Counted from the first letter of the stretch, positions 4,736-27,720 are shown. The stretch: DNA of 40,000 nucleotides from Noviherbaspirillum sp. ST 5-3 (GCF_046267815.1 NZ_CP176528.1:8698-48697); one strand, 5' to 3'. Notes: generated by a model from the letters alone, not told the origin. Numbers and translations are program-made.

Positions 4736-4864
4736 TGTTTGTTCTACAGGTTATTTACGAATTCTTTGTTAAGGTGGTGAGTGATACAGAAAATCACGAT
4801 GGAGTCGATGGCGCGGCCTCTTCAGGGTGTGGATTACTTCTGTTAGCAGCATCAATAGAGTTCA

Positions 4865-18889: not shown

Positions 18890-19890
18890 TCAGCACGAAC
18901 TTGGCAGATCGATGGGTGAGGAAACACCCCGGCCACCCTTGTTCAAAACATGCGCATACACGATGGTGGTCGACACATCCGCATGGCCAAGTAGCTCCTG
19001 AACTGTCCGGATGTCGTAGCCGGCCTCAATCAAATGAGTCGCAAAGCTATGCCGAAAGGTATGGCTGGATGCACGCTTGGTCAGCTTCGCCGCCAATACC
19101 GCACGTTTGACTGCCCGCTGGATGGTTTGCTCGTACAAATGGTGCCGACGAACGATACCGGTGCGGGGATCGGTCGATTCATGATCCGAAGGAAATGCCC
19201 AATACCAGCTCCATTGCGTGCCGGCAGACGGATATTTTCGCTCCAACGCATCCGGCAGCATGACACCGTTGCGGCGGTTCAGGCGATCCACCTCATACAG
19301 CGACTTTGCATATGCCAGCTGTTCCCGCAACGGCTGAACCAGGGACAACGGCAGCATGGTCAAGCGGTCCTTGCCGCCTTTGCCTCGCCGGATGGTGATC
19401 TCCCTTCGCTGGAAATCAATATCCTTGATCCGCAGCTGGGCACATTCCATCAATCGCATGCCGGTGCCGTACAGAAGTCTGGCAATCAACAGGTAAACAC
19501 CGTCCATCTGCGCAAAAATCCGATCGATCTCCTGGCGGGTCAGCACGGTGGGCTGGCGCGGCGGCTTCGACGGCTTGGGCAAGTCATCGATCCACGGCAA
19601 CTCCACTTTCAGCACGTGCTTGTAGAGGAACAGCAGGGCACACAGTGCCTGATGGTGAGTCGAGGTTGAGACGCTTCGTTCGTTGGACAAGTAGGACAGG
19701 AAGGCGTGGATTTCCGGTCCTCCCATATCGGCGGGATGGCGGAGCTGGTGAAAGCGGATTTACCATCTGGCCCAATACACGTAGACGCGTTCGGTCCGTA
19801 GGCTATAGTGCTTATCTCTAAGGCAACGTCGTAGCTGGTCGAGCAGTTTCGGTGGTTGCCCGACAGAAGCGGAATCAGGGGCGATTTTCA
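18890..19890 (-). pseudogene. intI: Integron integrase IntI with a single in-frame TAA (19759-19761)
   Basis: - Conceptual translation from GTG 19890: [74 protein letters not shown]...
- From memory, this is collinear with IntI1 along its whole length.
- It includes the IntI-specific insertion (ALERKYPSAGTQWSWYWAFPSDHESTDPRTGIVRRHH).
- It also has the catalytic R...K...HxxR...H...Y contexts (GTGMR, GKGGKDR, HTFRHSFATHL, LLGHADV, IVYAHV). Confidence 0.9.
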
Positions 19891-20032: not shown

Positions 20033-20311
20033 ATGAATAAGCAGCTCTACAACGCACCGCCGTCACCTGGGAGCCGCAGGATTCTCGGTCAGGGGTGTTT
20101 TGTCTTTGGCCTTTCAATGATCGCTTTCGGGATCTACCTATTTGTCGACGGATTTAATTGGCCACTTGGCGGTAGAGAGCGAACGATCGACATAATACTC
20201 ATGATGATTTTCGGACCGCAGTATGCGTCGCTGGCCATGGTTTGGTTTTTCATTGGGCTGGGTATCGTTGTGGGGTACAAAGGGCTAAAAATGTGGTGCA
20301 AAGATGCATAA
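20033..20311 (+). CDS. Cassette 1: small membrane protein (92 aa, 2-3 TM), unknown function
   Basis: ORF filling cassette 20024-20356. Hydrophobic stretches CFVFGLSMIAFGIYLFV and ASLAMVWFFIGLGIVVG. The stop lies inside the R'' box. Confidence 0.6.
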   Translation: MNKQLYNAPPSPGSRRILGQGCFVFGLSMIAFGIYLFVDGFNWPLGGRERTIDIILMMIFGPQYASLAMVWFFIGLGIVVGYKGLKMWCKDA

Positions 20312-20362
20312 CGAGTTATTCAACGCTGACGCGCAAGCGCGCCGTTTAACAAGGCGTTAGCC
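20306..20362 (+). other. attC of cassette 1
   Basis: R'' GCATAAC ... imperfect palindrome (..CAACGCTGACGCGC AAGC GCGCGCCGTTTAAC..) ... R' GTTAGCC. Confidence 0.75.
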
Positions 20363-20402
20363 GCCAAAACTATTCGCTGCCTATTTTCAGATTGGAACAA
20401 GA

Positions 20403-21272
20403 ATGGGTACTTGGGGATCTGGAATCTACGATGACGACTTCGCCGCGGACCTTAGAAATTCTGTAGCCATCGTATGTAAGGTTCCTTCCGGCGGCGATCG
20501 CCTCACGGAAATACTGTTGCAACTGCACGGAATCACATCGGAAAGCGAGGACGAAACTACATTTTGGCTCGTGCTTGCCGATCAGTTTGAGCGCAGAGGG
20601 ATCGAATGCCCTGGCGTATTTACCACTGCACTATCCATCATCGAAAGTGGGGCGGACCTGAGTCGCTTGAAGGACCAAGATGCGGATGAGCGCTTTCTGA
20701 AAAAGCGCGCCGTCGTACTCGAAGCACTCGCCACCCGGCTCCGGGCTCCGCGCCCATTCCGCCCCAGATCTATGCCCCGAAAGCCGCCCGATCTTGTGCT
20801 AGAAGTTGGATCGGTTTTCGCCTTTCCAACCATGAATGGTTTTGCATGTAGTCCGTGGCGCCTTCCCCGCGACGGCCCCTTTGCGACGAACGGATGGGGA
20901 GCTTTTGTCGTCCTCGATTGCGGCCGTGCCTTTGATTGGCTTCCATGGTGCGCGCTGGCCTCGCTGACCGTTGAACCTTCCAGAAAGCCGACGATAGACG
21001 ATGCAATTCACGCGAATCTAATCTTTCACCTTCAAACCGACGGCGCGGCAAGATGTGTCCCAAAACGGTCCGACGCAAAGACGATGCAGTTGGAGCTAAT
21101 TGGCCGCATCGCCCTAGACCCGAATTGCGTCAAGCCACATCTCTCGAAGTGGAGTATTAACGATGCTATTGAATGCGGGTGGTCAATCGCAAATGCCGGC
21201 TACTCCACTTCAGTACAAGGCCTTCCACGTGGTCCTCAACTACTTTCCCTTATGGCACGAAATGTCGGCTAA
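20403..21272 (+). CDS. Cassette 2: hypothetical protein (289 aa); N-terminus resembles DUF4259 (from memory)
   Basis: The ORF fills cassette 20357-21356. It starts MGTWGSGIYDDDFAADL. The family assignment is tentative. Confidence 0.6.
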   Translation: MGTWGSGIYDDDFAADLRNSVAIVCKVPSGGDRLTEILLQLHGITSESEDETTFWLVLADQFERRGIECPGVFTTALSIIESGADLSRLKDQDADERFLKKRAVVLEALATRLRAPRPFRPRSMPRKPPDLVLEVGSVFAFPTMNGFACSPWRLPRDGPFATNGWGAFVVLDCGRAFDWLPWCALASLTVEPSRKPTIDDAIHANLIFHLQTDGAARCVPKRSDAKTMQLELIGRIALDPNCVKPHLSKWSINDAIECGWSIANAGYSTSVQGLPRGPQLLSLMARNVG

Positions 21273-21362
21273 CCGGTCGTTGCAGCCGACCGCCCAAAAG
21301 CTGCGCTTTTGGGTCCCCTCGTCGCTACGCTCCTCGGCGGCGGCTGAACTTGGACGTTAAAA
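21267..21362 (+). other. attC of cassette 2 (long type, 96 bp)
   Basis: R'' GGCTAAC, spacer CGGTC, L'' GTTGCAGCC ... CCCAAAAGC TGC GCTTTTGGG ... L' GGCTGAAC, spacer TTGGAC, R' GTTAAAA. The R'' box complements the cassette start TTAGCC. Confidence 0.8.
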
Positions 21363-21671: not shown

Positions 21672-21725
21672 TTTTAACACGTCGCTCGACACCCACGCAA
21701 TGCGTGGGTCAGCTCAGCGTTATGC
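21672..21725 (+). other. attC of cassette 3
   Basis: R'' TTTTAAC, ACGTC, L'' GCTCGAC, ACCCACGC AATGC GTGGGT, L' CAGC, TCAGC, R' GTTATGC. There is an extrahelical base in L''. The R'' box complements the cassette start TTAAAA. Confidence 0.85.
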
Positions 21726-22117: not shown

Positions 22118-22174
22118 GCATAACATGACAATCGACACTGACCGCTTTGCGGCCGGTCATTTAACACGTTAAAA
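22118..22174 (+). other. attC of cassette 4
   Basis: R'' GCATAAC ... TGACCG CTTTGC GGCCGGTCA ... R' GTTAAAA. The R'' box complements the cassette start TTATGC. Confidence 0.8.
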
Positions 22175-22185
22175 GTACAAGACCA

Positions 22186-22428
22186 ATGAAGATATTTGGC
22201 TACGAAGCCGGAGGTGGAGATGGAGCTGAGATTCGACCAGCTGCACTGGATGAAATCACGCTTCAGGCAAGTCCGGCCGAACTTAGAAAAATTGCTGCCT
22301 TCTTGAATGCTTGTGCAGACGGAATAGAAACCCGAGGCAAGGATTGGGAGCACGAGCACCTATCAGACAGAGTAAAGGAGTTTGAAGGTTCGCCTCATTT
22401 TGTTGTCTTCAATCCGGAGGCGGTATGA
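22186..22428 (+). CDS. Cassette 5: hypothetical protein (80 aa)
   Basis: The ORF fills the cassette that starts at 22169. No family assigned with confidence. Confidence 0.55.
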   Translation: MKIFGYEAGGGDGAEIRPAALDEITLQASPAELRKIAAFLNACADGIETRGKDWEHEHLSDRVKEFEGSPHFVVFNPEAV

Positions 22429-22432
22429 AGAC

Positions 22433-22485
22433 TTTTAACACGTCGTTGCACACCCATGCCTCCGGCCTGGGTGAACTCAAGCGTT
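22433..22485 (+). other. attC of cassette 5, 5' part; the R' core is split by the IS and continues at 24227-24233
   Basis: R'' TTTTAAC, ACGTC, L'' GTTGCAC ... L' GTGAAC, TCAAGC, GTT | IS | GTTAGCC. The left half is near-identical to attC 3. Confidence 0.8.
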
Positions 22486-22584
22486 GAAGCTGTAGAAAAA
22501 CCCTTTTTCGAAAGGGCGAGGGCGCACGAAGCAGTATGCCAATTTGCGCTTCGAGCCGATTGAGTCAATTCGGGAAGTGAACGA

Positions 22585-22615
22585 GACAAAGGCAAGCCAT
22601 GCGCTTGCCTTTGTC
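22585..22615 (-). terminator. Perfect 13-bp hairpin immediately after the transposase stop
   Basis: GACAAAGGCAAGC CATGC GCTTGCCTTTGTC. It ends 1 nt from the stop codon (22617-22619) and lies inside the IS. Confidence 0.4.
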
Positions 22616-22616
22616 G

Positions 22617-24137
22617 TTACTGCGCATAACCGTGATGCGCGAGCTTCTCGATGTTATGCACCAGGCAGAACAGCTTCCACTGCACGTCAACTTTGATACG
22701 ACCGCGCAGCGTGAAGCGGTTGAGCTTCTTGTTGTGACGCAGGTTGCCGAACACCGGTTCCATGATCCCCAAGCGCCTGCCATACAAGGATCTGCCCTGT
22801 GGCGAATCGATACGCCGCTTCATCCGGTCGGTATGGCTTTCTGCGACGGCCTTGCCGAGGAAGATCGCTACCTGCCTTGTCTTGGTCTTGTCCGGCGTGC
22901 GCAGGCACTTGTCACGATGTGTGCAAGGCAAGCAGTCGCGCTGCGCTCCCTGGAATTTGATGGCCGCATAACCATTGATGCGGCAGTTGCTGCCGGTCCG
23001 GTACAGTTTCTTGCCCGCCGGGCAGATGCAGGTCTTGTGTTTTGGGTCGTAGCTGAAATGCCGCGCCTGGTACAGGCGCTTGCCATCGTCCGGTGCGCTC
23101 TTGTTGTAGAGAGGATCGGGTTGCTGTTTGTGCCTGTCCTGGGTGGCAAAGCGCTCGTCGCGTGAGCGCATGTTGTTGTCCGCAATGAGCGCATTCACTC
23201 CCATCGCATCGAGTGCCTTCAGGTTGGCTTCGCTGTGATAGCCGGCATCTGCCGTGAGGATCGAATCATCGGTGATCAGGCCATGGATCGCCTCGACCAT
23301 CGGCATCAACAGCTCCTGTTCGCTGCCGGTGCCGTGCGCTTGCGCTTCCACGATCACCTGATGCTTGCCGTCGACGGCGGCCACACCGGCATAGCCTTGA
23401 ATGACGCCTTTGGAGGTCGCCATCTTGGCGCTGTCGCCGTCGGTGCGATTACTCTTGCGTACACTGCCCTTGCTGCCGCGCCGCTCCTCTGGATGGGCAC
23501 TCAGCCATTGTCGGATTTGCGCAGCTTCGCGTTCGAGCGATGCTACGCGCTGCGCCGCCTTTGCTTCCAGGCCTGCTTCAATGGAAGACTTGTCGGCGTG
23601 TTGATGGCGTGCCAGCATGGCTTGCGCCGCGGCTTCCAACTTCTCGACCTGGCGCTCGAAGTCGGCGCGCGTACCGCTCTTGCTCTTGGAGGCATTGCTT
23701 GGCAGTTTCACGCCATCAATGGCGAACATCTCGCGCCCGATCAAGCCTTGGCGATCACAGATAAACAGCACCTGGCTGAAGATACGGCTGATGTCCTCGC
23801 CCAACGTACTGACAAAATCGGCGATGGTGGTGAAATGCGGTGCATGGTCGCCGCACAGGGCGATGAATGTCACTTGTTCCCGGCAGGCGCGCTCGATGGC
23901 GCGGCTGCTGACAATGCCCCGCGAATAACCGAACAGGATGACCTTGAGCAGCAGGGCAGGCGGATAAGCAGGAGCGCCGGTGTCGTCGTTGCGAAAGCGT
24001 GCATCCAGATTGGAAAGGTCCATCTCATGGTCGAGCAGATGGTTCAACGCATGTTCGAAGGTGCCCGGCAAAAGCTGCCGCGAGAGGTCAATCGGCAGAA
24101 AGCGCGGATTGGTATCAATGTGCTTGTAACGGGCCAT
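22617..24137 (-). CDS. DDE transposase (DUF772-type N-terminus, IS1182/IS5-superfamily)
   Basis: 506 aa. N-terminus ...GAPAYPPALLLKVILFGYSRGIVSSRAIERACREQVTFIALCG. A central coiled-coil insert, then DAGYHSEANL. C-terminus ...FCLVHNIEKLA. Confidence 0.85.
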   Translation of the reverse strand: MARYKHIDTNPRFLPIDLSRQLLPGTFEHALNHLLDHEMDLSNLDARFRNDDTGAPAYPPALLLKVILFGYSRGIVSSRAIERACREQVTFIALCGDHAPHFTTIADFVSTLGEDISRIFSQVLFICDRQGLIGREMFAIDGVKLPSNASKSKSGTRADFERQVEKLEAAAQAMLARHQHADKSSIEAGLEAKAAQRVASLEREAAQIRQWLSAHPEERRGSKGSVRKSNRTDGDSAKMATSKGVIQGYAGVAAVDGKHQVIVEAQAHGTGSEQELLMPMVEAIHGLITDDSILTADAGYHSEANLKALDAMGVNALIADNNMRSRDERFATQDRHKQQPDPLYNKSAPDDGKRLYQARHFSYDPKHKTCICPAGKKLYRTGSNCRINGYAAIKFQGAQRDCLPCTHRDKCLRTPDKTKTRQVAIFLGKAVAESHTDRMKRRIDSPQGRSLYGRRLGIMEPVFGNLRHNKKLNRFTLRGRIKVDVQWKLFCLVHNIEKLAHHGYAQ

Positions 24138-24239
24138 GGGAGAACCTCCTTGTTTCTCCCATAGACTGGTTATTGTGATAACAGTTCGAGCGTGGCAAGA
24201 TGCAGAGATACTTTTTATACAGCTTCGTTAGCCGTCTTG

Positions 24240-24929
24240 ATGCCCATGCGTTCGCAATTTCATCGTCAGACTGAAATAGCTCGTATACGTGCCGAGCTGG
24301 AGCTGAAAGGCTTACCTCGCCTCAAAATGCTGCTCATCATCACGCTTACTGGCGGTGCAGGTTTTCTTGCTTCGTTTTCGATGCTCCGCTGTTGCGTAAC
24401 GTCAATGGCCATTCGCTATCCTGTGTCCATTGCCATCGCCTATGTCGTATTCTTATTTTTTCTCTGGCTTTGGCTCAGAACGTCTGCCGAGGATTACACC
24501 GATTTCCCAGATCTTTCTGGCATTCCAACTTGCCGGAATGTTCCGACCGATTGCTCAGAGCTTCACTCGGTGGCGTCGGCCGATGGCGGATCAATATCCG
24601 ACACAATTGGTGCAGCCGCCAGCGCGGATGAAGTCGCAATTCCTCTTCTCGTTTTGTTAGTAGTCGGCGCATTGCTGCTCTCATCGCTTTGGATCGTTTA
24701 TACGGCGCCTACGCTATTCGCCGAATTGCTGGTTGACGGAGCCCTTTCCGCTAGCCTTTACCGAAGGCTTCGGGGCCTCGACACCCAGCATTGGTTGGCC
24801 ACTGCTATCAGCCGTACTATCTGGCCGTTCGTCATAACGGCGGTCATCGCCGGTTTCGGCGGTAAGGCTCTACAGTTTTGTGTTCCCACAGCCTACTCAC
24901 TTGGCGAGGTAATACACTGGCATGAGTGA
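24240..24929 (+). CDS. Cassette 6: polytopic membrane protein (229 aa), unknown function
   Basis: Start moved to the ATG at 24240 (MPMRSQF...) because the track start at 24192 lies inside the IS. Several TM stretches (LLIITLTGGAGFLASF, VSIAIAYVVFLFFLWLWL, IPLLVLLVVGALLLSSLWIV, IWPFVITAVIAGFGG). Confidence 0.6.
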   Translation: MPMRSQFHRQTEIARIRAELELKGLPRLKMLLIITLTGGAGFLASFSMLRCCVTSMAIRYPVSIAIAYVVFLFFLWLWLRTSAEDYTDFPDLSGIPTCRNVPTDCSELHSVASADGGSISDTIGAAASADEVAIPLLVLLVVGALLLSSLWIVYTAPTLFAELLVDGALSASLYRRLRGLDTQHWLATAISRTIWPFVITAVIAGFGGKALQFCVPTAYSLGEVIHWHE

Positions 24930-24935
24930 GCAGAC

Positions 24936-25000
24936 GGCTAACCTCTCGGTCAACCGGACCTCGCGCATAAAGCCGCGCGAGGTCAGTTACCTCAAACGTT
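24936..25000 (+). other. attC of cassette 6, 5' part; the R' core is split by the MITE and continues at 25109-25115
   Basis: R'' GGCTAAC, CTCTC, L'' GGTCAAC, CGGACCTCGCGC ATAAAGC CGCGCGAGGTC.., L' GTTACC, TCAAAC, GTT | MITE | GTTAGGC. The R'' box complements the cassette start TTAGCC. Confidence 0.85.
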
Positions 25001-25108
25001 GAAGCTGTAGAGAAAACCCAAAAATGCCATTCTTGCTAATTCTCAAGCCAAGGGAATCAATGACTTACGCCGCTAAAAAAACCGCAAAACGACTTTTCCT
25101 ACAGTCTC
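25001..25108. mobile_element. 108-bp MITE sharing its termini with the IS at 22486-24226
   Basis: The left end GAAGCTGTAGAGAAAACCC matches the IS end GAAGCTGTAGAAAAACCC. The right end, reverse-complemented, is GAGACTGTAGGAAAAGT against the IS end GAAGCTGTATAAAAAGT. There is no ORF. It is flanked by GTT/GTT and has the same orientation as the IS. Confidence 0.75.
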
Positions 25109-25120
25109 GTTAGGCAGAAC

Positions 25121-25573
25121 ATGTCACGCGAAGGCGATCTCATCAGACGCGAGTTGAAGAAGCATGTGATTCCTCGGTTGGAGGAACTTGGCTTTTCAGG
25201 AAAAGGGCTGTACTTTCAACGAAAACGTGAGGTCTTAGATCTTTTGGATTTCCAGTATTGGAAGTACGGGGGAGAGTTCTTGCTTGAATTCGCGTCGTGT
25301 GAGCTAGGCGATCTTAAGACGTCTTGGGGCGAGATTGTGCCTGAGAATAAAATCACCGTGGCGCATATTTCCCCATTGAAGAGGGCGCGCCTACAGCAGC
25401 AGGGGCCAACACGGGGAAAGAATTTCGGGGGATTTGCATTCGAAGGCTTCGCGGATGACCAAGAACGATACGAGTCACTGGCGCGACAAGTAGCAATGCT
25501 CCTGCCTCAAGTCGATCTTTGGCTTCGTATTAGGGAGGTCGGTTCACATGTGCACGTACTTGGAGCTGCCTAA
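25121..25573 (+). CDS. Cassette 7: hypothetical protein (150 aa); resembles DUF4304 (from memory)
   Basis: The ORF fills the cassette starting at 25110. The N-terminus ...HVIPRLEELGFSGKGLYFQRKRE is of DUF4304 style. The stop lies inside the R'' box. Confidence 0.6.
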   Translation: MSREGDLIRRELKKHVIPRLEELGFSGKGLYFQRKREVLDLLDFQYWKYGGEFLLEFASCELGDLKTSWGEIVPENKITVAHISPLKRARLQQQGPTRGKNFGGFAFEGFADDQERYESLARQVAMLLPQVDLWLRIREVGSHVHVLGAA

Positions 25574-25619
25574 CATTTTGATCAACGCCGACGGCTGCGT
25601 CGCCGGTTATCGCGAACGT
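25568..25619 (+). other. attC of cassette 7 (terminal), 5' part; the R' core is split by the group II intron and continues at 27455-27459
   Basis: R'' GCCTAAC, ATTTT, L'' GATCAAC, GCCGACGG CTGC GTCGCCG, L' GTTATC, GCGAAC, GT | intron | TGACC. The architecture is the same as attC 6. The R'' box complements the cassette start TTAGGC. Confidence 0.8.
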
Positions 25620-27454
25620 GTGTGCCGGGCATGGCACGTAACTATGCAGGTGCAAGTCCTGCAGCCAGGTTTTCGTAGAGCCGAAGGCTAGGAGAACGGC
25701 AAGGGCGTCGCCGCGAGGCGGGGTCTGAAGGAAGCCGAATCCAAAACTGCGGGGCGACGAACAGAAACCGGATATGAGGCGTGATGCATTCGGGGCGAGC
25801 GGGCACGTGACTGCGAAGCCCTCCATCTACGATTGGGATGCATTTTGTAAATCCGGCGCTCGCGCAGTGAAAGTGACGTGTCTTACCCCGGGAGGCCTGT
25901 CCGGTGCCACAGGAGTGGCTGGGAACTGAGAGATTGGTTTTGACCGCCGGGCAGGAGTCAGCAGAAGGCATAGTAGGTGCAAGGCCCTGCACCGAAGGCC
26001 GGAACAATAAATGATGCCAAACCTTGTAATGAGAAACGGGACTGCCCCTGATCGACAGCTAACGCTGCCGCTGGCCGAAAGGCCAGAGGGTGAACTCGTG
26101 GCTGGAGAGCAAGGGCTTCGTGCATCAACGGAAGACCTTACCCTGATGGCGCAGATACTCGCACGCGAGAATCTGAAACGCGCCTTGAAGCAGGTTCGTC
26201 AGAATCAGGGCGCACCGGGCATCGACGGCATGACGGTCGATGAACTTCCGGCGTACCTGAAACAGCATTGGCCGGAAATACGCGCCCAACTGGAGGCGGG
26301 ACAATACCACCCGCAAGCGGTCAAGCGCGTGGAAATTCCCAAGCCCGACGGCAAGAAACGGCCATTGGGCATTCCGACCGTGTTGGACCGCTTCATTCAG
26401 CAAGCCATTGCGCAAGTAATACAAGCGCAATGGGAACCGGCATTCCACGCCGACAGTTACGGCTTTCGACCCAACCGGAATGCACATCTGGCTATCTGGC
26501 AGGCGCAACGCACTATCCGTGAAGGCCATGGCTGGGTGGTGGATATCGACCTTGAAGCGTTCTTCGACCGCGTCAATCATGACCGGCTGATGCAGCGGCT
26601 CAAGCAGCATGTTCCCGACCGGCAGGTACTGCGGCTCATCAACCGCTATCTGAAGGCGGGGGTGCGGATTGGCAGCCAAACACAGGCAACGACAGCAGGC
26701 GTGCCGCAAGGCGGCCCACTGTCTCCGGTGGTAGCCAATGTCGTGCTGGATGAACTGGACTGGGAACTGGACAAGCGCGGCCATCGCTTTGCCCGCTATG
26801 CGGATGATTGCAACATCTTCGTGCGCAGTCAGCGTGCCGGCGAAAGGGTGATGGCAAGCATAGAGCGTTTCGTGCGTGACCGGCTGAAGCTCACAGTCAA
26901 TTCACGCAAGAGCGCAGTCGACCGACCATGGAATCGAAAATTCCTGGGCTTTACCATCAGCGCCAAGACCAAAGTGAAAGTGGCCGAACAGGCCATCTTC
27001 AAGCTCAAGGCGAAGGTAAAGGAGTTGACCCGTCGTACCAGAGGCCACCGTTTGAGCGATATCATCGTGGAGCTGAGAGAAACCCTGCTTGGTTGGAAAG
27101 CGTATTTCGGCATTGCCGAGGTACTGAGCCCTCTGCGGGATATAGACAAATGGATACGACGGCGGTTACGCTGCTATCAATGGAAACAATGGGGGCGAGC
27201 GGGATACCGTGAGCTGAGAAAGCGCGGTGTGACTGTGCGAGAAGCATGGAACTGCAGCAAATCGGCGCATGGACCTTGGCGCATCAGTATGGCTCCAGCC
27301 TTGCTGCTTGCGATGCCGAACCGATTGTTTCGCCAAATGGGGCTGCCTTCACTGGCAGCATGAGATCAACCGTATTTATTGAACCGCCGTGTACGTGACC
27401 CGTATGCACGGTGGTGTGGGAGGGAGGGGCTGCGAGGCTTCTTCCTATCCCGAT
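25620..27454 (+). mobile_element. Group II intron (bacterial, En-less, class C-like), 1835 bp
   Basis: - 5' end GTGTGCC (GUGYG).
- Intron-encoded RT/maturase ORF in the position of domain IV.
- Domain V-like hairpin at 27383-27415 (ACCGCCGTGTACG TGACC CGTATGC[AC]GGTGGT) with a 2-nt bulge on the 3' strand.
- Domain VI-like stem with a bulged A (..CCTATCCC) ending ..CGAT at 27454. Confidence 0.85.
26011..27363 (+). CDS. Group II intron reverse transcriptase/maturase (no endonuclease domain)
   Basis: RT blocks ...GAPGIDGMTV..., RPLGIPTVLDRFIQQA, GVPQGGPLSPVVANVVL and FARYADDCNIFV (YADD), followed by the maturase X region. It ends without a D/En domain. Confidence 0.9.
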   Translation: MMPNLVMRNGTAPDRQLTLPLAERPEGELVAGEQGLRASTEDLTLMAQILARENLKRALKQVRQNQGAPGIDGMTVDELPAYLKQHWPEIRAQLEAGQYHPQAVKRVEIPKPDGKKRPLGIPTVLDRFIQQAIAQVIQAQWEPAFHADSYGFRPNRNAHLAIWQAQRTIREGHGWVVDIDLEAFFDRVNHDRLMQRLKQHVPDRQVLRLINRYLKAGVRIGSQTQATTAGVPQGGPLSPVVANVVLDELDWELDKRGHRFARYADDCNIFVRSQRAGERVMASIERFVRDRLKLTVNSRKSAVDRPWNRKFLGFTISAKTKVKVAEQAIFKLKAKVKELTRRTRGHRLSDIIVELRETLLGWKAYFGIAEVLSPLRDIDKWIRRRLRCYQWKQWGRAGYRELRKRGVTVREAWNCSKSAHGPWRISMAPALLLAMPNRLFRQMGLPSLAA

Positions 27455-27720
27455 TGACCGGCCGCTTTCCCGTATTTAGCCGACGGTGGCGAAGACCACC
27501 GGACTGAATGCATACTTCGCCGATCACGCTGAAAACGAACATCGGAGCATGCAAAGGACTTATTCCGTGCCTTCCATGTATTCCGCGGACATCCATCACG
27601 TCCTCGATTTCCCCTGATGTCAGACCGCCGCCGACGCGGTGAACAGCCCTCTCGAACCGGCTGGATAAAGCCTGTCGCATGGGCTAAGCTGACAGGATTT
27701 CCAACCCTGATCTGAACGCG

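Follow-up and report, generated by a model that had tools for sequence, protein, structure and literature searches.

The window analysed here, a stretch of 40,000 nucleotides from Noviherbaspirillum sp. ST 5-3 (GCF_046267815.1 NZ_CP176528.1:8698-48697), contains an integron that spans approximately 18.9-27.5 kb, with seven cassettes on the + strand after the integrase gene intI. Within this array, an insertion sequence (IS) of the IS1182 family and a 108-bp miniature inverted-repeat transposable element (MITE) interrupt two attC sites, attC5 and attC6, at the GTT of the R' core, the three bases within which IntI crosses over. We consider it highly probable that the 1,741-bp IS belongs to a large clade of IS1182-family DDE elements, that the 108-bp element is a MITE of this clade, and that both select the attC R' core. 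The features on which this reading is based are the following, with positions counted from the first letter of the window:

22433-22485, + strand: attC5 through its R' GTT, with R'' = CTTTTAAC; match to covariance model R1 (described below) at 22433-22489, 29.1 bits, E 7e-05 to 3.5e-04
22483-22485, + strand: left GTT, from the attC5 R' core, one copy of a putative 3-bp duplication (sequence)
22486-24226, - strand: IS1182-family IS of 1,741 bp, with its transposase gene (tnp) antisense to the cassettes (inverted repeats identical at 14/15 positions, IS1182 hidden Markov model)
22486-22500, + strand: terminal inverted repeat on the attC side, downstream of tnp, GAAGCTGTAGAAAAA, then CCC (motif scan)
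22617-24137, - strand: transposase gene, intact, 506 amino acids (open reading frame [ORF], hidden Markov model and Pfam)
24212-24226, - strand: cassette-side terminal inverted repeat, upstream of tnp, with the inward sequence GAAGCTGTATAAAAA (motif scan)
24227-24229, + strand: right GTT, the second copy, followed by AGCCGTC, the start of cassette 6 (sequence)
24936-25000, + strand: attC6 through its R' GTT, with R'' = GGCTAAC; the top R1 match in the window, at 24936-25004, 53.3 bits, E 7e-10 to 3.5e-09
25001-25108, + strand: MITE of 108 bp, with ends GAAGCTGTAGAGAAAACCC and, inward from the other end, GAGACTGTAGGAAAAGT (terminal motif and flanks; same polarity as the IS)
25109-25111, + strand: GTT 3' of the MITE, running into AGGCAG, the start of cassette 7 (sequence)

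At the left junction of the IS, ...CAAGC-GTT (22483-22485) is followed by GAAGCTGTAGAAAAACCC, the first base of the element being 22486; at the right junction, TTTTTATACAGCTTC (last base 24226; read further, CTTTTTATACAGCTTC) is followed by GTT (24227-24229) and AGCCGTC. The MITE lies between ...CTCAAAC-GTT (24998-25000), which precedes GAAGCTGTAGAGAAAACCC, and GTT (25109-25111) AGGCAG, which follows GACTTTTCCTACAGTCTC. When the sequence was re-read, the coordinates, ends and junctions given for both elements in the original prediction were correct to the base, as was the placement of the two elements at the same R' GTT position of attC5 and attC6 with the same polarity.

Complementarity between the R'' box and the start of a cassette is the expected product of IntI recombination at G/TT (here and below, a slash marks the crossover or insertion point). 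Visual inspection of the window array showed that every cassette has an R'' that is reverse-complementary to its own first 8-10 bases; for example, the attC5 R'' box CTTTTAAC is complementary to the cassette 5 start GTTAAAAG, and the cassette 7 start GTTAGGCAG is the reverse complement of the attC7 R'' box CTGCCTAAC. The cassette 6 start GTTAGCCGT, located directly 3' of the IS, is the exact reverse complement of the R'' box of the same cassette, ACGGCTAAC (attC6, 24934-24942). The right GTT is therefore the true cassette boundary, and attC5 is split in its R' core; the run of this GTT into AGCC is the one that had been predicted from the cassette 6 R'' box. The uninterrupted sites attC2-4 of the window have a single GTT each. 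Because they also lack GAAGCTGTAG, this sequence is not a normal extension of attC, a possibility that had been raised at the outset.

The inverted repeats of the IS are identical at 14/15 positions. With up to three mismatches allowed, the terminal motif was found three times in the 40 kb (IS left, IS right and MITE left ends), versus 0.03 times expected from shuffled sequences; a fourth copy, at the right end of the MITE, has diverged further. A match to the motif at window position 4753 was judged to be due to chance.

The transposase scored 294.2 bits (E 1.9e-87) with the NCBIfam IS1182 equivalog model NF033551, whose cut-off is 270, and the IS5 and ISNCY models scored it far below their cut-offs. 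Its Pfam domains are DUF772, DDE_Tnp_1 and DDE_Tnp_1_6; the Pfam and NCBIfam searches returned only DDE IS1182 domains, with the DEDD domains PF01548 and PF02371 absent. Three acidic residues, D141 (AIDG), D297 (ADxGY) and E460 (VEPVFG), are invariant across nine members that share 25-73% identity, and their positions fit those of a DDE triad, for which they are the catalytic candidates. The proposal of an IS1182-type DDE transposase was thus upheld by a curated model and by a conserved candidate triad. The arrangement of the element, with one tnp ORF between inverted repeats and a length of 1,741 bp, is that of the IS1182 family, where approximately 1.3-2 kb is expected. The protein is 100% identical to the database entry 'IS1182 family transposase [Herbaspirillum sp. 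ST 5-3]', and its database matches are named just 'IS1182 family transposase' or 'transposase'. A break at the IS is seen in this strain's draft assembly (GCA_004804275.1; contigs 31, 19 and 18, our loci L080, L210 and L211), where the IS forms a 1,666-bp contig of its own, while the neighbouring contigs begin or stop in or near it; this suggests the presence of more than one copy of the IS in the genome.

Each end of the IS contains 90-180 bp of non-coding DNA. On the side downstream of tnp, we identified the following feature:

22500-22517, - strand (the tnp strand): terminator-like hairpin with a T-run, overlapping the inverted repeat 3' of tnp (consensus scan; putative function)

The matching motif of this hairpin (AGGGGTTTTT; also given as AGGGGTTTTTCTACAG) is kept in relatives, and a perfect 13-bp palindrome is located directly after the tnp stop codon (22585-22615). 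Neither the IS nor the MITE has a convincing predicted promoter directed outward into the downstream cassette. The length of these non-coding ends, together with the seekRNA that guides target choice in IS1111/IS110-type elements, to which the other attC-targeting IS group belongs (PMC11187229), would agree with a target choice guided by RNA, in which a non-coding RNA derived from the IS pairs with the attC core in the manner of the IS110/IS1111 bridge RNA or seekRNA. We regard such guidance as highly improbable, since the transposase is of the DDE and not of the DEDD type, no Rfam family matches the IS, the non-coding ends are accounted for by the inverted repeats, the terminator-like hairpin and the 13-bp palindrome, and no guide-like GTTAGGC/GCCTAAC motif was seen in them.

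The window MITE contains no ORF of 50 or more amino acids. Three soil-metagenome MITEs (loci L147, L130 and L135) match all 108 bp of it with 79%, 78% and 77% identity, respectively, and they have the same orientation relative to attC as the window MITE. With the IS, the window MITE has only the 16-21-nt termini in common, and the same is true of MITEs and full-length IS copies in general. The shared termini and the metagenomic counterparts support the earlier view of the 108-bp element as an ORF-less relative of the IS, and by its sequence we classify it as a probable non-autonomous element of the IS lineage. The transposase presumably mobilises such MITEs in trans. Because the MITEs carry only these termini, the comparison indicates that approximately 20 nt at each end would be sufficient in cis.

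Based on a scan with the transposase protein in one genome per species, we confirmed 536 relatives and read 79 loci with 66-87% amino acid identity, mostly from betaproteobacterial metagenome-assembled genomes (MAGs), with some from Gemmatimonadota and others; this selection was blind to the flanks. In all 79 loci the termini correspond to GA[ACG]G[CT]TGTAGAAAAA, the IS end ...AGGGGTTTTTCTACAGCNTC is kept across them, and the elements measure 1,654-1,909 bp. Among the copies with readable ends, placed in cassette orientation, GTT was located directly before the element in 60/61 and directly after it in 59/60. The remaining flanking positions were conserved as follows:

Position -4: C in 56/61 related IS copies
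Position +4: A in 53/60 related IS copies
Position +5: G in 49/60 related IS copies
Position +6: G in 32/60 related IS copies
Position +7: C in 37/60 related IS copies

The downstream consensus is GTTAGGC. Polarity is uniform in all related copies: the tnp-downstream end is directed toward the attC body, so that tnp runs antisense to the cassettes. Eight loci with enough flank resemble the window in having an intI homologue, co-oriented with tnp, no more than 3 kb away. Approximately 130 further copies, from other bacteria and from metagenomes, occupy the same GTT spot.

The MITEs were collected independently of their surroundings, using the pattern CTGTAGRRAAA-N{63,93}-TTTYYCTACAG in metagenomes, which includes neither the outer four bases of the inverted repeat nor the flanks. 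At least 82 matches in 80 loci were listed, with a sampled size of approximately 93-123 bp. Among the matches listed, 64 of the 82 have the GA...TC ends of the family and a length of 95-123 bp, and they represent 61 unique insertions that belong to several MITE families of 96-120 bp. GTT was present on both sides of 59 of these 64 MITEs; in four of the other five, one side has GTT and the opposite side a one-base variant (GCT, GAC or GGT) or AAA, and the last is cut off by the end of its contig. The base at -4 is C in 48/55 of the family-type MITEs, whose downstream consensus is again GTTAGGC. As an internal control we used the 17 pattern matches that lack GA..TC ends, most of which have unrelated, non-GTT flanks. 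When related pairs were oriented by their flanks and their internal sequences were compared, 156 had the same polarity and none the opposite one. The MITEs are accordingly present in multiple copies at different sites with the same GTT flanks, in at least 64 metagenomic cases.

The position and polarity of these insertions bear on the idea that insertion is untargeted, the arrays being tolerant safe havens and GTT only a weak preference. Cassette arrays are dispensable and collect mobile elements, and three successive attC sites of the window are each occupied. Nevertheless, survival bias is no source of single-nucleotide precision over approximately 120 independent insertions, it leaves unexplained the 156:0 polarity of ORF-less MITEs of about 100 bp, and no insertions were seen in cassette ORFs or at other attC positions; we find untargeted insertion scarcely credible. 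The flanks of the IS copies, with one polarity and mostly canonical attC sequences, and those of the MITEs retrieved with a flank-free pattern both agree with the targeted recognition advanced in the original prediction; a majority of copies outside attC with unrelated flanks, the refuting outcome named there, was not observed.

We evaluated the attC nature of the flanks with a test of arm complementarity, in which the arm on the GTT side was compared with a segment starting at AAC 40-146 nt upstream, against shuffled sequences. Complementarity reached p<=0.05 in 32/56 IS sites with at least 150 nt upstream, the remainder being mostly canonical by eye, and it was significant at 31/50 MITE sites. 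The R'' box of the IS sites is located 57-130 nt upstream with complementary L''/L' arms, and the segment usually follows GCCC, GCCT or GTCT. We then aligned 16 reconstituted sites from other genomes, with one GTT deleted from each (alignment A1). A1 has invariant AAC/GTT pairs, an L''/L' helix with 95% pairing and compensatory changes in 6/8 pairs, and one unpaired column; the covariation score was 0.423 versus 0.123 in shuffles, a value reached by 0/500 shuffles. The covariance model R1, built from A1 and hence from the flanks of other genomes only, recognised six sites in the window:

21267-21362, + strand: attC2
21672-21725, + strand: attC3
22118-22174, + strand: attC4
22433-22489, + strand: attC5
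24936-25004, + strand: attC6
25568-25625, + strand: attC7

Run over the 40-kb window with filters off, R1 gave no match beyond these six. The recovery of attC2-attC7 by a model derived from IS flanks elsewhere shows that the IS-adjacent sequences of other genomes are the same kind of site. The sites have the R''/R' boxes of attC (RYYYAAC...GTTRRRY), paired L''/L' arms with an unpaired base, and a variable loop, and they are arrayed beside intI in a single orientation, all six between 21267 and 25625. The R1 matches on attC5 and attC6 extend exactly 4 nt into the IS and the MITE, respectively, and R1 matches stop exactly 4 nt inside 19/64 of the metagenomic MITEs. A further 33 R1 attC matches were found on MITE contigs, on the same strand where they could be compared. 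Two other attC tests were discarded: minimum-free-energy folding of the flanks, unconstrained and constrained, gave over-long segments and was insensitive, and a strict regular expression that demanded reverse complementarity between R'' and the adjacent R' recovered no true attC, since R' in an array is completed by the next cassette. Within the clade, the GTT of ...C-GTT-AGGC is the point of insertion; the element is flanked by GTT at either end and has a fixed orientation relative to attC.

The nearest plasmid or chromid relatives of the transposase are found in Pseudoalteromonas, with 44% amino acid identity. They belong to a marine gammaproteobacterial clade, marine MAGs included, that comprises Pseudoalteromonas piscicida (L081/L083), Psychromonas ingrahamii 37 (L207, CP000510 at ~1.713 Mb), Shewanella goraebulensis (L209) and the loci L082 and L212-L214. 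Six complete and one partial sites of this clade read ...CGTT/GAGGCTGTAGAATT ... ATTCTACAGNCTC/GTTAnnn; they have typical attC sequence upstream, and in two cases the integrase is one cassette away. The target position is the same as in the betaproteobacterial clade, and tnp is sense to the cassettes; polarity is therefore fixed inside each clade and opposite between clades. In three of the marine loci, we also observed IS110-family genes (DEDD_Tnp_IS110 plus Transposase_20; L212 3703-4530, L213 252-1292 and L214 3631-4530), on the strand opposite to that of the IS1182-type elements. L212 and L214 resemble cassette arrays, and two kinds of attC-associated IS may co-occur in them.

Beyond these two clades, neither the inverted repeats nor the flanks of IS1182 members at 27-31% identity (among them a Pseudomonas plasmid copy, an ISPmo1-like copy and a Burkholderia plantarii copy) are related to those of the attC-targeting elements. 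Elements such as the ISPmo1-like, the ISMno15-like and the Pseudomonas plasmid IS1182 share with the window IS the family, the domains and the candidate triad, but they differ from it in identity (25-31%), in their unrelated repeats and in their flanks, which contain neither GTT nor attC. The attC specificity is thus a trait of a clade and not of the whole IS1182 family. Both attC-targeting clades have a segment of about 22 amino acids, RDERFATQDRHKQQPDPLYNKS in the window protein (residues ~333-355; alignment A3 columns ~340-362), that three distant IS1182 transposases lack, the ISPmo1-like, ISMno15-like and Pseudomonas plasmid elements being among those without it; we propose this segment as a candidate, and nothing more, for the specificity determinant.

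Several observations weigh against the selection of the attC R' core by this clade. The ends of the window MITE differ from those of the resident IS at several positions, and this particular copy is no more than a candidate for its mobilisation. The opposite polarity of the marine clade is evidence against a polarity that depends simply on the direction of the transposase gene. The attC tests were only moderately sensitive (32/56 IS sites, 31/50 MITE sites and R1 matches abutting 19/64 MITEs). A search for empty-site alleles of attC5 and attC6, in which the reconstituted junctions were compared by BLAST with the collected loci, gave none, only tandem-element artefacts, and exact-protein look-ups of cassettes 5, 6 and 7 led only to the draft assembly of the same strain. 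As a consequence, the 3-bp duplication is deduced from the attC architecture, and insertion without duplication, by an element with a GTT of its own, would look the same. Finally, a minority of insertions (L014, L033, L045, L057 and L213) are located at CGTT/AGSC without a recognisable attC, which suggests that the core sequence alone is sometimes enough and that attC structure is no absolute requirement. A CGTT/GTTAGSC junction without recognisable attC upstream is likewise seen at L036, and the L213 insertion adjoins a pseudouridine synthase gene.

In some loci, tandem elements have one GTT in common: MITE-GTT-element in L086 (~967-1090) and L154 (~2862-2990), IS end-GTT-MITE in L119 (1-130), and IS-AAC-IS in L074 (1790-1800). 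These tandem insertions indicate that an existing junction (C-GTT-AGGC or C-GTT-GAGGC) is still a target.

The insertions without detectable attC are what would be expected if the element recognised a short double-stranded motif (approximately CGTTAGGC), as many IS5-type elements do, and attC merely carried this motif. The tandem insertions of L074, L086, L119 and L154, in which one side of the target is an IS end and not an attC arm, point in the same direction, and so does the sequence logo, which is strongest at C-GTT-AGGC; the strict polarity fits this model and one that includes the attC context alike. We consider recognition of the motif alone unlikely, although it deserves attention. 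By our own estimate from base composition, the 8-mer occurs some hundreds of times in a 5-Mb genome, mostly outside arrays, and yet most of the 56 IS sites with sufficient upstream sequence, and most MITE sites, are canonical attC sites. In the window, the sole non-array copy of CGTTAGSC (3499) is empty, versus two of the three copies in attC sites that are occupied. Because CGTTAGGC is expected to be far commoner outside arrays than within them, the 8-mer by itself would not be enough.

The reading that we favour, selection of the R' core within its attC context by an IS1182-family clade and its MITEs, suggests the following mechanism. Staggered cutting is usual for DDE transposases, and the enzyme would cut with a 3-bp stagger around GTT to give a 3-bp target duplication; removal of one GTT from the reconstituted sites restores a canonical R' core. 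Recognition would be by protein and would involve the R' box (CGTTAGGC) plus the attC context, either as the sequence of the L' arm or as a folded or cruciform attC. The AGGC half of the R' box recurs in the IS terminus G-AGGC, so that the attC-side junction reads GTTGAGGC, an R'-like core. This mimicry of R' may be the basis of target capture, and the upstream attC may remain usable through it; on a more speculative note, the domain that binds the inverted repeat could also read the target half-site.

The remaining features of the integron are the following:

18890-19858, - strand: intI, the integron integrase gene, which marks the left end of the array (Pfam Phage_integrase and Phage_int_SAM_4, a SAM-like N-terminal domain)
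24240-24929, + strand: cassette 6 ORF of 229 amino acids, without family match, flanked by the IS and the MITE (ORF call, Pfam search)
25568-25619, + strand: attC7, the final site of the array, with its R' core broken after GT (R1 match 25568-25625, 22.2 bits)
25620-27454, + strand: group II intron in the attC7 R' core, with a reverse transcriptase (RT)/maturase ORF at 26011-27363 (Rfam RF02001, RF01998 and RF00029 for domains D1-D4 and D5/6; Pfam RVT_1 and GIIM)

The product of cassette 5 (22186-22428) is an Imm32-family immunity protein, and that of cassette 7 (25121-25573) is a protein with a weak match to DUF4304, below the Pfam cut-off. The first cassette boundary (20307-20365, GCATAAC...GTTAGCC) is attC-like by eye, with an unoccupied R' of CGTTAGCC; the R1 search did not pick it up, even at E<=10.

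The intI translation contains an IntI-type segment, ...ALERKYPSAGTQWSWYWAFPS...RRHH, and an in-frame stop (...YVYWARW*IRFHQLRHP...); the gene is probably a pseudogene. This would mean that the inserted elements are no longer removable by cassette excision; in the window they separate cassettes 5 and 6 and cassettes 6 and 7, and they are likely not purgeable by that route. The state of intI is also relevant to the notion that IntI itself inserted the elements as pseudo-cassettes, given that recombination at G/TT also leaves two GTTs. The insertion point is the IntI crossover trinucleotide, with G/TT at both junctions, and the elements occur in arrays beside intI. We judge such an origin very unlikely: the elements have classic terminal inverted repeats and the IS an intact DDE transposase, neither the IS nor the MITE has a terminal attC (no R'' ...AAC and no L''/L' arms at the 3' end, and no R1 match inside), the window intI is probably a pseudogene, and some insertions are located outside integrons (L213).

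Comparison with known systems places the clade of IS1182 elements that insert at the R' core apart from each of them. IS5 has a YTAR target and a 4-bp duplication, and the IS1031 group TNA and 3 bp; such targets are short, frequent and symmetric, and the insertions are scattered and non-polar. The elements described here resemble the IS5 family in their related DDE transposases and in a sequence-defined duplication of 3-4 bp, and the GTTAG of their target contains a YTAR-like TTAG; in contrast, they insert at effectively one position in a structured recombination site and are strictly polar. In integron mobilisation units and the MITE pairs of Acinetobacter, MITEs bracket whole integrons and are not known to be attC-specific. 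These are also miniature inverted-repeat elements, whereas ours are inside individual attC R' cores.

The closest parallel in outcome is the IS1111-attC group of the IS110 family (ISPa21, ISPst6 and relatives), which is monophyletic, attC-specialised and inserted in a single orientation (PMC3001079; PMC11616780). Members of this group, like the group IIC-attC introns, insert near the attC 5' end, on the bottom strand and antisense to the cassettes (PMC3001079). The likeness lies in a monophyletic attC-specialised IS with a single orientation in many arrays. The IS1111-attC elements are of the DEDD type and occupy the 5' end of attC, whereas the IS1182 elements here are of the DDE type and occupy the GTT of the 3' R' core; the latter also differ in their flanking 3-bp repeat, in their abundant MITEs and in having one subclade sense and one antisense to the cassettes. 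The window element is thus in the IS1182 family and outside the IS1111-attC group, yet alike in outcome. The group IIC-attC introns (e.g., S.ma.I2) are also a monophyletic attC-specialised lineage and can prevent Pc from driving the expression of cassettes further downstream (PMC3001079). As retroelements, they home to the bottom strand by means of RNA and reverse transcriptase, in contrast to the DNA transposons with inverted repeats described here.

The group II intron of attC7 has the junctions GAACGT/GTGTGCC ... CCCGAT/TGACCGG, i.e., it splits the R' core of attC7 as GT/T. Both its RNA domains and its RT ORF are sense to the cassettes, unlike the bottom-strand, antisense arrangement of the group IIC-attC introns (PMC3001079). 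It resembles a mirror image of those introns, with the top-strand hairpin as its apparent target, and we refer to it simply as a group II intron. We treat it as context and do not count it in the IS/MITE system. Consequently, attC5, attC6 and attC7 (22483-27455) are broken within one nucleotide of the same R' GTT by a DDE IS, a MITE and a group II intron, respectively.

In the literature that we searched, only the IS1111-attC elements, with their DEDD transposase, and the group IIC-attC introns are named as attC-targeting, and no report links IS1182 to attC; ISfinder lay outside this search, and a prior description is possible. In the integron papers of 2024-2025 that we found, the only attC-targeting IS cited is the IS1111 group. 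We see about an even chance that the elements constitute the first recognised attC-specialised DDE lineage, for which 'IS1182-attC group' would be a suitable name, with two or more subclades, the betaproteobacterial and soil one with tnp antisense to the cassettes and the marine gammaproteobacterial one with tnp sense, with many MITE families and with single-nucleotide, polar insertion at the crossover GTT, independent of the IS1111-attC group and of the group IIC-attC introns.

The IS and the MITE are co-oriented around cassette 6 (ORF plus attC6), and together they delimit a segment of 2,623 bp (22486-25108) whose outer ends are an inverted-repeat pair. Because copies in an array are co-oriented, two elements around a cassette would form a composite transposon. 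If this is true, the IS-cassette 6-MITE unit could carry a cassette and its attC between attC sites without the integrase.

For annotation, MITEs of approximately 100 bp escape gene-based methods and will mislead attC and cassette callers, and the elements probably explain part of the 'cassette-encoded transposases' of amplicon surveys. A DDE enzyme with near-identical inverted repeats that nevertheless inserts with polarity at a single position is a tractable model of polar target capture, and a compact, protein-only insertion at a defined 8-10-bp or structured site could serve as a tool. With respect to the target itself, the enzyme may read a folded or cruciform attC. For integrons, in which attC sites are the units by which cassettes are traded, the elements split the attC body from the start of the next cassette, and cassettes are thereby fused or immobilised. 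This widespread DDE lineage, with 536 relatives in species-representative genomes and at least 64 MITEs, would be a third, mechanistically different integron parasite at the crossover GTT.

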